Source of the DNA: a virus | Taxonomy: Duplodnaviria; Heunggongvirae; Uroviricota; Caudoviricetes | Virus record (IMG/VR): IMGVR_UViG_2713897054_000007 | Direction: 5' to 3' (one strand) | DNA: 47,016 nucleotides | In this document: piece after piece, positions 34,801 to 40,800 of the stretch | Numbering within the stretch: position 1 is the stretch's first letter | Layout of the letters: every line of letters starts with the position of its first letter | Program-made: the position numbers

Positions 34801-37800
34801 AAATATAGCCCCCGACATCACACGCAGTCAATACCGTCCTTTCTCAGAAACGCTTTGGCGGTGCCGCCTGCACCCCAAAACATTCCCTGTATTGGTCAGC
34901 GCCAACTTCCTGCCAGTGTTGCCCGTTCTCACGCCGTTCTCGCTCTCGCGCGGGGATACTCTCTCATCGACCGGATCGCACCCGATGATACAGCACGTTT
35001 ACGTGTAGGGGTCTAAACAGGTCATTGACGCTGTAAAGCTCCAGGTTGTTAAAGAGCATTTTGCGGCGGGTTAAGTCGCGCCGTACGACTGATTTATGTA
35101 GCCCTGTGTAAGGGCGCGATGTTTCTGGCTTGAAAGAAATATAACTTGCGGTGATTTTTATGTAAATACCGTTAGTGGTTATTGGGGGTGAAAAAATATT
35201 ACTTAACTGATTTTTAAAGTGATTTATTTTTTAAGGGGACAGATAACAGGAGGGGATATGCAAAGAAAAACCCGGCGCATGGGCCGGGCTATTTATCTGG
35301 TCCTGTTCTCATTCAGTAGAGTAGGGGCCAAGAAATCGCACTCCGTTGAAGTGAATAAGATGAGAAGGTGCATCAGCCACCCATACCTCTGTTTCCCATG
35401 CGATTTCACCAAGATATCGCCCCATGATGGAGCGATTTGGAAAAGCGGTCACATAGACAAGTCCGGCTGTTGATCCGGCAAACAGCCTGGCAAGCTCAGC
35501 ATGCCGCTTCCCATCAACCGGTCCATGACTGGTGACAGACTCAACCAGTAGCAGCCAGTTTTTCGCAGTAAAATGTAGCACCACATCTGGCATTTTACCG
35601 TGTGAATCCACATCAACACCTAGCCCGGCCAGCAGTGGAGCGTCGAAGTAGCCCCACTTTTCGCCAGTGTCGCCAGCATAGACCAGCACGCTACCCGGAG
35701 CAAAACGTGGGGCGAAGTCCTCTATTATGGCACGGATAAGTTCGCTGTGCTCGCCGGGACTGAGGGTTATTTGCTGGCCCGCAGCAATTTCAACAGGGAT
35801 ACGATTCTGTTCGCGCTCCTTAGCATAGCGGGTAACCAGCGTTTCACGCTCGGCTAAATAGGTTGCAAGGCTATCGTGCCATGCCGGGCTGCCGAAAGTG
35901 CGTAGCATGGACAGAGCAGCAGGTTCGATCTGATAAACAGCCTTCGGGCTGTTCACTGGGCGATCGGGCTTGTCCGGATTGTAGAGGGCTACTCCAGCAG
36001 CGCAGAACTGATGCATAGACTGGCGGCGGAATGTCTCACGAGTATTGGGTGCGTAGACCTTGCCGTAGTGCTCCCGAACCCAATTCATGATTGGTGTAAT
36101 GCCCACAAGCGGATTTTCCGCGTCGGCCCATGCTTTTCCCGGTGTGAGGTTCAGGAGTGCCAGCAAACACAAAGCAGAACGCTCATTCTGCTGCGCTCTG
36201 GGCAGGCCTAAGGATGCTATAATTTGCTGAGCGGCCTCAATATAATCATTTTGGTTGTTCATGCAGTCAGAGCTCCTAGCTTAGCGTCAATATGTTCTTG
36301 CGTGAGAGTTTCTTGTTGCATAGCCCACTTGCCAAGCTCTATCAGAGTGTCACGGCTTGGGTACTTAATCATCTTGAGGTCGGTTGCATTGACCTGTGTA
36401 TGCCCGTTGAAGCGACGGAAGTACTTATCCACTGCGGTAGTGTTCAGGAACACGGCCAAGCCACGGGCCAGCGCCTCGGGTAACCCATGTTTGTTCTCAT
36501 GAAACACGTTCATGTGATTTTCAAATCCCAACACTGAATACTCACTGAAGGTAGCAGGATCAACGACGCTTGCTACCACTCGGCGCTTTTCCTCCTTCGA
36601 CGAGAAACGACGCACCACACAATAAAAACCGTTCGGGTAAAGCCACTTTTCTGTCTCGTCGTTGCGCATGATTGCGTTGGGTTTCTTCAAACCTTCCACA
36701 GGCCAGACAGTGCTACTCATACTCAAATGGCTCGGGTAGATCAGGGGAACAGTTCCTTCTTCTGGCATGCTGCGCAAATGAGCTTTCAGTCGGAAATCAA
36801 CTATCGGTCCGGTCGATACCTTCACGCCAATATCAGCCAGCGAACATTGTACGGCAGATGATAACTCAATGGTGCTTTTCTCGAGCGTGGTCGGCACATG
36901 AATAAACCGCTCCGAATCGTCCGGGTACACAATCTGGTCAAATGGGTGTTCGTAGGTGACCAGGTCAAAAAAGCTATCATCGGTCGAAGTTGTGACTGTA
37001 ACAGCCTCCTGACGGCCTCCACGCTCCAGGCGGATGATAATATTTTCCTGCAACACATCGTCATCCCTGAAAGCTTTGCTACGTGATTCGAACAAATGAA
37101 TATGGCGGATTGCTGCCCGCTCAAGTATGAAATTACGGAACGGACGGTAATACGGTCCGTTGCAGAAACTACGTGGGATTATGGCCACTATCTGCCCGCC
37201 AGGTGCAACCTCACCTACAGCCAGTGCAACAAAGGCGGAATACAGATTTACCGTCTCGATACCGACAGTGCGAAGAGCCTGCCGGTGGGCTGACTGGCTA
37301 TTGATCTTCTTGTAAGGCGGATTAAGTATTGCATGGGTATAACCTCGATCCTGTAGACCTTCGGCGGTTGCCAGCTCAATATAATCCCCTTCGATGATGC
37401 GGGGCGTCACTCTCCTGTACCCGGTTAAGTGCTTCGCAAGGTGACCACACAGCTTTTTGTCGATTTCGTAGGCTGTTGCCTCGACAGACTCAAAGCCAAA
37501 CTCGCCAACCAGCCAACGGTCGAGGAAGGCGCAAGACAGTGCGCCTAAACCAGCGCCTGCGTCCAGTAGACGGCAAGTTTTCATTGTGCTCGGTGGAAAC
37601 AAGGAGGCCATAAAACGGGCCACGCCAGAAGGCGTCATGAACTGGCCGAACTCTGCTTTGTGTTTACGCGCGGTACGGGGAGACAGCTCGCGACGCACGC
37701 TGTCTGCGACGTCTAGCTTTTGAAGCATAACTAATCCTCTTTACGTGGCATGATGATGCCAACGTGCTTTTGACATCCTCCACATTCTTCAGGCGTGAAG

Positions 37801-40800
37801 GATGTCAAATCACTCTGTGAGCTCAATCAAAAGTCTCATCATTCCACTGCGATTTGATGACCTTTCCGACAAACTGGCAGTTTTCGTTACACTCAATCAT
37901 GTCGAATCGTGGGTTGAGCGGCTCCAGGTACGCTTTACCGCTCTCACGAATGAATCGTTTGAAGGTAAATTCATCGCCGTTCATTCGGGCCACGCAAAAA
38001 TCGCCATCCTCGATTTCCCGTTCAGGGTCAACGAGTATCAGCATACCTTCAGGGAAGCTGGGTTTACCACCCTGCGGTGCGGTCATTGAATGCCCCTTGA
38101 CCTCCAGCCAGAACGACCTGTCACTGGCTTTTGTGGTGGTGGAGATCCATTTAATCGCATCTTTTGCGGTGTACGAAATATCATCCATTGAGAATGCGCC
38201 AGCTTGTACGCAGGAGAGTAACGGATATTCGTAAGCGGGGACACGAGTTAATGGCTCTTCAATTGCGAGCGCCATTTCTGCAATAGATTTTGCCAGGCTG
38301 GGACTGAAATCTCCGACCTTTACATTCAGTATCTTAGCAAGCTGTGCTGCGTGGCTGGCATTTATGGCGTTGATGCCAGCCATTAGCTGATTAACAGCGC
38401 TTTGGGTAACACCTAATTCATAGGCTAATGATTCCTGCGACAGGCCTAACTCTTTCTTTTTAGCGTTAAAAATACTTTTCAGACGCTTGGCGTCTTCCAG
38501 TTGCTCAGGGGTTAACGGTTTCTTTTTCATGTTCATACCATATCACCTTTGGTTATATGTAATGAAATATCTGCGGTGTTGACATTTTAATAACTGTGCG
38601 TAATGATATGGGCATTTTGAAGGAGTCAGTTATGGCGATGAAAAAAGAGACCCTGGCTGATTACGTATACAGGTTCGGCCAAAAGAAAGCCGCTAAGGAC
38701 TTTGGCGTGGCGCAGAGTGCAATCAGTAAAGCGCTTCTCGTCGGACGAGAAATATACGTCAAAACCTTTGATGACGGCACAGTTGAGGCGGAAGAGGTTC
38801 GTCCGTTCCCTGCGTTCGTAAGAGGCGATGATTAATCCTGGACACACAGCCCATCGGAGGTGTGAGTGAACAGGCAAATCAAAACGGTTATGCCCGAGCA
38901 GTACTGTGATGCTGATCGGGACTGGATACAGGAGCAATTGTTACAGCTAGACCCGACCACCCGGGTAAAAATTGCAGCAGAGTACGCGAGAGTGTACCAG
39001 GAAGAGTGGGACAAGGAGCCTGTATCGTTCAGGAAGGGCAACAGGGCAAGACGGAGCGCCAACACCCGGTTACGGGTGTATGTCCAGAAGTACGCGAGAG
39101 CCAGCCGTGGCTGGATGCTTTCGCCAGTAGCGGTACGGAAGTTTCCCCCGACACCATGATGGCGGTTAGTTGCGCTAGAAATAATTTCACATGCAACTAA
39201 TTTCCTGAAAGGAAGCGAGGAGGGGGTAAGGGGGTGGAGTCGTTGGTAAGGCCTGTATCCCTTGGCCTAGGCCAGAAGGCAGGTACATAGGTTAGGTAGA
39301 TCACTGTATAAGCGCGCGATAGTTTCTGGTGAAATAATTATCGAGCTAACTATTGAGTGATAAACTATGTCAGCAGCAACCAAATCGGCACTGATCCGTA
39401 CACTGAGCACTGTACCACTGAGAACAGAGGAGCGTTACAGCTTTCTGGCTGATGTCGTAACGATCCTTGAGTCACAGGGGATGCATGTGGCAAGCAATGT
39501 CACAGTAAGAATCGATGGCAGAAATTTCCGTGTTGATATTCTCGCAACAGCAAAAACTGGTGGGAGTGTGGCTATCGAGATCGATCGTAGCTCTCCGCGA
39601 CCCCGCTCAGTCATGAAATTGCGTGAATTGGCACGTCGTGGCACTGAAGGCTTTGTGTTGCTTCGAATGCCAAAGAAACTGACCAGTTATAGCGATGCTG
39701 GGATCGATATCATCCCGGCGAATGGCAAGGGGGCGTCATGCTGAAAATCACCCCAAACTTTGCTCAGGAGCGCGGTTTAAACCAGCTGCGGCACCAGTGG
39801 AAACTGCATCGCACGTACCTGATGTATGCACCCACTGGCTCTGGCAAAACTGGTCTTGCAGCATTCGTCACTGCCGGAATGGTTGAACGTGGTATGCGGG
39901 TGATGTTTGTCTGTCCGTACACCATCCTGCTGAACCAGACAGCGGAACGTTTCACCGAATACGGTTTGCCGTGGGAAGAAATCAGTTTTGTATGGCGTGA
40001 TCACCCTAACTATGACCCGTCACGACTGATTCAGATTGCCAGTGCCGACACGCTGATCCGTCGTGAGTTTCCTGACAACATCGATCTGCTGATCATCGAT
40101 GAAGCACACATGAAGCGTCGTGCGTTACTTGAGGTTATCCGGGACAGAGACATCAGGGTTCTTGGACTTTCCGGCACCCCGTTCGCAGCCTGGATGGGGA
40201 AGTACTACGAATGCCTGATCAAGCCTACAACGATTCGTGAACTTATTCAGCGTGGTGATCTGAGCGATTACGAGTTTTTTGCCCCCTCAATGCCTGATCT
40301 GGCTGGCGTAAAAACCAGTAACACCGTATTTGGACGGGATTACAACGAGGAGCAGCTCGCATCCATCATGGGGAGTTCGGATCTGGTTGGCGATATCGTT
40401 CGCAACTGGCTTGAGAATGGCGAGGATTTGCCGACGATCTGCTTTTGCGTGAATGTTGCGCATGCGAATTTTGTTACCCGTGAGTTTTTACAGGCCGGTA
40501 TTGGCGCAGAGGTGATGACGGCAGATACCCTCCATGATGAACGACAGGACATCATTCGCCGTTTTGAAGAGGGCGCGACCAAAATAATTGTCAACGTTGG
40601 TGTACTGGTTGCGGGATTTGACAGCGATGTTCGCTGCCTGATCTACGCCCGTCCGACAAAATCAGAAATCCGTTGGTTGCAGTGCATAGGTAGAGCGTTA
40701 CGTACAGCCCCAGGTAAAAAACGTGCGTTGATTTTCGACCATTCTGGTACGGTTCATCGGCTGGGCTTCCCCGAGGATATCGAGTATGACGAACTGCCGG

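Follow-up and report, generated by a model that had tools for sequence, protein, structure and literature searches.

EcoGIII, the restriction-modification (R-M) system of type II carried by the Shiga toxin 2a (Stx2a) prophage of Escherichia coli O104:H4 strain C227-11, was reportedly characterised in that strain by Fang et al. in 2012 as a CTGCAG system. Papers that cite the C227-11 work describe it there in the same way (PMC6602927, PMC3893438), and the latter states that M.EcoGIII was demonstrated to methylate CTGCAG, giving CTGC(m6A)G. Adenine methylation at this site amounted to 98.8% in an O145 strain with the cassette in its Stx2a prophage and to 0% in a sister strain without it (PMC3893438), and to 100% in two O111 strains (PMC6602927). 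In its summary, PMC6602927 further credits EcoGIII with protection against lambda-like phages, an influence on growth and, upon deletion, altered expression of about 1,900 genes; an EcoGIII plasmid in recipient cells lowered plasmid transfer (PMC4288162). The genomic setting has also been described: lambda cI has rexA-rexB, the leftward operator OL and the N gene to its left, and in phages of the present kind a BsuBI R-M pair lies left of cI, in the place of rexAB (PMC5977221, 2018). Here we compare with these systems a locus in the viral record IMGVR_UViG_2713897054_000007, a stretch of 47,016 nucleotides (the window, in what follows), in which genes for a 489-amino-acid (aa) methyltransferase (M) and a 317-aa endonuclease (R) stand beside cI on the minus strand.

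We believe, with a probability of roughly 0.93, that this pair is EcoGIII itself, a type IIP R-M system and isoschizomer of PstI and BsuBI, which an Stx2a-converting phage bears as cargo within its immunity region and which is most likely transcribed with cI from the promoter pRM. The identity of the system is carried by comparison with C227-11, whose M (WP_000939558), R (WP_001064714) and cI agree with the window translations at every residue, with none of 489 and none of 317 positions differing in the R-M pair. The PstI isoschizomer on an Stx prophage to which the initial annotation referred does exist and is none other than EcoGIII. Cleavage of CTGCAG is reported for the C227-11 endonuclease, the protein identical to R of the window, in PMC3893438 and PMC6602927, the first of which describes the identical R as biochemically active. 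At the DNA level the window is 99.7-100% identical to O104:H4 genomes and P13374-type phages, and the 3,801 bp at 35100-38900 match 74 deposited phage records, nearly all of them Stx2a-converting and including P13374, TL-2011c, PA2, VT2phi_272 and Ss-VASD, at 99.6-100% identity, with Stx2_KIH15-140 and O104:H4 2009EL-2071 identical throughout. This same stretch occurs in 147 of 5,426 complete E. coli genomes, chromosomal in every case. P13374 is the 2011 O104:H4 outbreak phage, and its annotation records a restriction endonuclease and a DNA methyltransferase beside cI. The window is an Stx2a-converting short-tailed phage and one more copy of the C227-11 Stx2a phage lineage, its R-M pair without any difference.

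The family evidence agrees with this identity. In M, the S-adenosylmethionine-binding motif I (DAGAGLG, aa 56-62) precedes motif IV, NPPY, at aa 136-139, so that motif I and a (D/N/S)PP(Y/F/W) motif IV are both present, as in N6-adenine methyltransferases; the protein matches the Pfam Eco57I-type methyltransferase domain (E 3e-9) and, over its full length, the PADLOC profile MTase_II (E 5e-248). R matches PADLOC REase_II (E 1.6e-168) and both domains of the BsuBI/PstI family far above cut-off, namely PF17728 (BsuBI_PstI_RE_N, the N-terminal helix-turn-helix (HTH) domain; E 1.2e-54, aa 7-143) and PF06616 (BsuBI_PstI_RE, the C-terminal catalytic domain; E 4.6e-61, aa 155-307), and it aligns with the solved structure of SdaI (2ixs) over residues 8-315 (E 1.2e-77). 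Across 108 distinct homologues, residues D198, P225-D226 and E241-x-V-T244-S-H246-G-P vary hardly or not at all; R has all of them and retains every column conserved in at least 97% of the homologues; SdaI is the sole outlier among the aligned homologues, with two lysines in place of T244 and H246. D226 and E241 correspond in the 2ixs alignment to SdaI D233 and E248, which we take to be catalytic residues. Pfam and NCBIfam scans of M and R returned only R-M families, and no homology to RexA or RexB. Both the NPPY motif and the PstI/BsuBI-like endonuclease, the latter proposed tentatively in the initial annotation with a search against Pfam BsuBI_PstI_RE as its check, are thus borne out, and the 489-aa and 317-aa products together make up a type II unit in the order M, R. 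As a candidate for M, the "prophage rRNA methyltransferase" of PA2 and PA8 (PMC10810198) was rejected: it has a DPPW motif and is an enzyme of another type, MT-A70.

Read along the minus strand, the region comprises in turn cI, a 94-bp gap, M, R, a terminator-like hairpin and a pL-like promoter (Table 1), with cI the first gene of a presumed immunity operon. The plus strand reads TCAT at 36259-36262, or ATGA on the minus strand, where the stop of M overlaps the start of R. Together with the open reading frames (ORFs) this upholds the coupled pair on the cI strand that the initial annotation had read there, as well as its placement between cI and a candidate pL/OL, in the rexAB position that PMC5977221 likewise notes. 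The span 35266-37822, singled out in that annotation, extends from the terminator through the base preceding the cI stop. Its description of the unit as closed by its own terminator holds in part: a terminator is found, with an 8-bp stem containing six G-C pairs followed by TTTTTCTTTG, but it belongs to the phage backbone and not to the imported cassette, because the homology to a non-phage cassette, from Serratia, stops at 35321.

Table 1. Coordinates of features in the cI-M-R region of the window.
Feature	Position	Strand	Evidence
cI repressor, 237 aa, lambda-cI-like, HTH and S24 autopeptidase	37823..38536	-	Pfam Peptidase_S24 E 9.5e-29, HTH_3 E 8e-10; C227-11 protein identical
Cro-family gene, divergent from cI	~38596-38835	divergent	domain scan
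OR1-OR3 operators of the BAA2326/O104 phage repressor, with pRM and pR	38546..38605	.	exact matches to the footprinted sequences of PMC5977221 at 38590-38605, 38567-38583 and 38546-38563
Hairpin, 16-bp stem, between cI stop and R-M cassette	37769..37809	-	RNA fold; no U-tract
Cassette leader: serine-recombinase remnant, small hairpin, M Shine-Dalgarno GAGGA	37729..37768	-	comparison with relatives
M.EcoGIII, 489-aa N6-adenine DNA methyltransferase	36259..37728	-	Pfam, PADLOC, motifs, identity to C227-11
R.EcoGIII, 317-aa BsuBI/PstI-family type IIP endonuclease	35309..36262	-	Pfam, SdaI alignment, identity to C227-11
Intrinsic terminator closing the cI-M-R unit, tIMM-like	35260..35290 (hairpin and T-run 35290..35269)	-	terminator scan
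Candidate pL, sigma-70-like TTTACA-17-TATATT	35166-35161, 35143-35138 (35166..35138)	-	promoter scan; just past terminator
Operator-like dyads	35140-35156 and 35167-35183	-	dyad model, breakpoint comparison

Relatives of the pair indicate where the cassette may have come from. In a one-genome-per-species collection, at least 598 stretches were confirmed as relatives of R, and 80 loci were kept, with R identities of 69-94%; they come from phyla far apart, among them Chloroflexota, Cyanobacteria and Verrucomicrobiota, and from many Proteobacteria. In nearly all of the kept loci R directly follows M, the ATGA junction recurs in many of them, and M-R is a compact cassette that is widely exchanged. 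DNA similarity between the window and a Serratia nevei copy spans 37768 to 35321, marking an imported segment of about 37768..35321. The 40 bases ahead of M retain the vestigial last codons of a serine-recombinase gene, reading ...KHVGIIMPRKED and a stop. Three relatives (L009, L014 and L047), from Serratia nevei, an Acidiphilium metagenome-assembled genome (MAG) and another Pseudomonadota MAG, have a resolvase gene ending in ...YKHVGVITPRQ and a stop, or a close variant, directly upstream of M; the resolvase of the Serratia locus L009 (1348-1950) matches Pfam Resolvase with E 5.8e-46, and in a further locus (L023) a resolvase-like ORF lies about 640 nt upstream of M. The remnant points to a resolvase-linked mobile origin of the cassette.

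The cI-M-R layout also occurs elsewhere. The unrelated high-GC viral contig IMGVR_UViG_3300043425_000927 (L104, 2716-6141) carries a divergent Cro-like gene, an S24 repressor, M and R, in which the repressor ends 4 nt before M and the start of R overlaps M by ATGA; identity to the window is 29% for the repressor (against cI), 74% for R and 65% for M.

These arrangements bear on how the pair is transcribed. A promoter scan found no promoter-like hexamer pair in the 94-bp gap between cI and M, and the pair is flanked by the hairpin that follows cI and by the immunity terminator, in the rexA-rexB slot; for these reasons co-transcription of M-R with cI from pRM is most likely, and the pair would be expressed in the prophage state. 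In lambda, rexAB is co-transcribed with cI from pRM. Further support comes from the cI-M hairpin, which lacks a U-tract, and from the relatives, where M begins 10-20 nt past the stop of the upstream resolvase gene (L009, L014 and L047) or, in L104, directly behind the repressor, a closeness that suggests a unit dependent on upstream transcription. We also count the CTGCAG methylation seen in lysogens (PMC3893438, PMC6602927) as indirect support for co-transcription with cI. In a paper on an O104-phage lysogen and its supplements, no expression values for M or R were found. The working of the unit can then be sketched. In a lysogen, M.EcoGIII would place a methyl group on the CTGCAG adenine in both strands of host and prophage DNA, and R.EcoGIII would cleave incoming unmarked DNA, such that the lysogen would restrict foreign phages and plasmids; the M-then-R order with its overlapping stop and start fits the need for the methyltransferase to be made no later than the endonuclease.

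The hairpin between cI and M is a prominent feature in its own right. The fold of 37715-37835 has an energy of -40.6 kcal/mol (z = -3.9), and the stem-loop at 37769-37809 stops exactly at the cassette boundary, the Serratia homology beginning at 37768. Relatives from which R-M is deleted (L136) retain its stem with a different loop, and the hairpin belongs to the phage backbone. It was not found in phages outside this lineage. Its role could be mRNA stabilisation, a processing site or transcription attenuation.

Several close relatives have lost or damaged the pair. L136-L138 and L142 (PhiR12_3, PV340552.1, 4024-4556) have the same cI and hairpin and have lost 37767-35625, a deletion that removes M entirely together with R's first ~213 codons, its 5' two-thirds; in L136-L138 and PhiR12_3 about 160 bp of unrelated sequence replaces the deletion and the last ~100 codons of R remain, a remnant that is annotated "type II restriction enzyme BsuBI". 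Separately, in the near-identical contig IMGVR_UViG_2974591200_000001 (L114, 6001-6618), R aligns over residues 1-206 only, with M and cI intact, and its endonuclease gene may be disrupted.

Damaged copies such as these invite the view that the endonuclease has decayed and that the methyltransferase serves only to shield phage DNA from PstI-type host systems. We give this almost no credence, and it is already contradicted, for R in the window is full-length, keeps all the columns conserved among the 108 homologues at the threshold given above, and is identical to the enzyme described as biochemically active in PMC3893438. The loss variants bear differently on the idea that the main selected role of EcoGIII is prophage addiction, through post-segregational killing, or epigenetic control of host genes, with defence secondary. 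M and the catalytic part of R are missing together in L136-L138 and PhiR12_3, and M is never missing alone in the loci examined, as would be expected were R lethal in the absence of M; the expression changes and growth effects summarised in PMC6602927 point in the same direction. Against this stand the protection from lambda-like phage and from plasmid entry reported in PMC6602927 and PMC4288162, and the fact that addiction and defence are not mutually exclusive. A prophage-stabilising role is thus compatible with the data, and we regard its primacy over defence as rather unlikely.

More directly opposed to co-transcription with cI is the proposal that a functional EcoGIII has a separate promoter and is transcribed without regard to cI and pRM, in which case its position beside cI would carry no regulatory meaning. 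Self-regulated expression is usual among type II R-M systems, two TTGACA hexamers lie inside the inverted repeat of the 94-bp gap, and the strong hairpin there could separate the transcripts. Yet the gap has no promoter-like hexamer pair and its hairpin no U-tract, and M sits close behind a resolvase gene in the closest relatives and 4 nt behind the repressor in L104; we therefore consider a separate promoter improbable and continue to favour transcription from pRM. At the same time, several points count against EcoGIII as a functional system read with cI. The gap or the 3' end of cI may harbour a weak or non-canonical promoter, and attenuation or processing of the transcript at the stable hairpin (37769-37809) is conceivable. 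The functional statements on EcoGIII rest on papers citing Fang et al. 2012 and not on that primary paper. Finally, the phage keeps six CTGCAG sites (607, 715, 943, 1240, 7175 and 41626, the first at 607-612 being the one already pointed out in the initial annotation; none within 35100-38900), where 19.6 are expected under a Markov model (P = 3e-4) and 11.2 from base composition (P = 0.07), a count below the former expectation yet not clearly below the latter. Four of the six cluster within 640 bp, at 607-1240.

To the left of the cassette, the position of pL and OL can be approached through phages with altered immunity. About 24 Stx2a phages share the R-M pair and the C-terminal half of cI (window 35290-38234, 95.7% identity) and differ in the N-terminal domain of cI, the rightward operator OR, cro, and 35145-35289. 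A change of immunity specificity should swap both operator regions, and in these phages the left breakpoint (35144/35145) is immediately upstream of the pL-like promoter's -10 hexamer, which is shared. The dyad TATMACCNNNGGTKATA from the OR3 area matches at 35140-35156 with two mismatches, against 0.28 such matches expected per whole window; at three mismatches it does no better than chance. When the published OR1-OR3 sequences were compared without gaps along the whole window, nothing came up at the OL position, which agrees with the remark in PMC5977221 that OL is not readily identifiable. Placement of pL/OL at ~35138-35183 is likely but unproven.

In the same ~24 phages, two additional genes stand between the terminator of the R-M unit and pL (L002, LC645424.1 1110-1960, replacing 35145-35289; also L097). 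The first encodes a 156-aa antitoxin with a SocA/Panacea domain (Pfam E 4.5e-22), the second an overlapping 127-aa partner that is hydrophobic by eye and has no family match. Together they resemble a toxin-antitoxin module, and they have a terminator of their own that is very similar to that at 35260..35290. Taken with the resolvase-linked EcoGIII cassette, the apparently independent acquisition in L104 and a real OL/pL at ~35138-35183, this added Panacea module raises the possibility that the slot past cI is a recurrent landing site for promoterless defence cassettes that depend on the repressor promoter, an idea we hold only tentatively and at somewhat less than even odds. If it is true, looping between OL and OR across 3.4 kb of cargo could set the levels of repressor and R-M jointly.

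The leader past the pL-like promoter (34880-35058, minus strand) is 94-96% identical to unannotated DNA of phi80, HK225 and Klebsiella KO-TP1, and no N gene was found within it. As to whether it might be of the HK022 putL type, HK022 is not among the matches listed, and the leader folds no better than shuffled sequence (z = -0.2). Farther along, Rfam matches an isrK RNA at 34795..34720 (-) and a C4 antisense RNA at 34695..34608 (-); the two RNAs lie immediately ahead of a gene for a 261-aa protein with Rha and Ash domains (33906-34691, -) and overlap its start. This arrangement resembles the c4-ant immunity module of phage P1, and the ~1 kb that holds isrK and C4 is described as non-coding in PMC5977221. 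Other Rfam matches above the gathering score are STnc100 at 45669-45882 (+), isrC at 45-167 (-) and two sRNA-Xcc1 copies at 24552-24637 and 25087-25176 (-).

The identity, function and placement of the pair are already known, the system having been published since 2012 and its rexAB position since 2018. What we add is small: the cassette boundaries, the resolvase remnant, the pL/OL-like site, the variants with a Panacea module, the relatives with an R remnant and the layout of L104. Through EcoGIII a Shiga-toxin prophage can confer on its host both a restriction barrier and a methylation mark across the whole genome, and the 2011 O104:H4 outbreak strain is among the carriers.

Set beside known systems, the closest by far is EcoGIII in the Stx2a prophage of C227-11, with the same M, R and cI (100%), flanking DNA at 99.7% and the same phage type. 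With PstI, BsuBI and SdaI (CCTGCAGG, PDB 2ixs) the window shares the two-domain endonuclease with its conserved acidic catalytic residues, and with the PstI and BsuBI systems an N6-adenine methyltransferase with NPPY. It differs from SdaI in the T244 and H246 that R has in common with its family, in place of the two SdaI lysines, and from PstI-type systems in its tandem genes, M preceding R, whose stop and start codons overlap. In the relatives most distant among those found (R identity 41-43%), M is on the opposite strand; such a divergent layout is the PstI arrangement. The comparison with lambda rexA-rexB is one of position and purpose. Both units occupy the same slot, past cI on the cI strand and ahead of the immunity terminator and OL/pL (PMC5977221), and rexA-rexB is likewise cargo that is expressed in the lysogen and excludes other phages. 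Co-transcription with cI from pRM is established for rexAB, and for EcoGIII we infer it. The two are unrelated in sequence, and where lambda relies on abortive infection, EcoGIII acts by restriction of unmethylated DNA.

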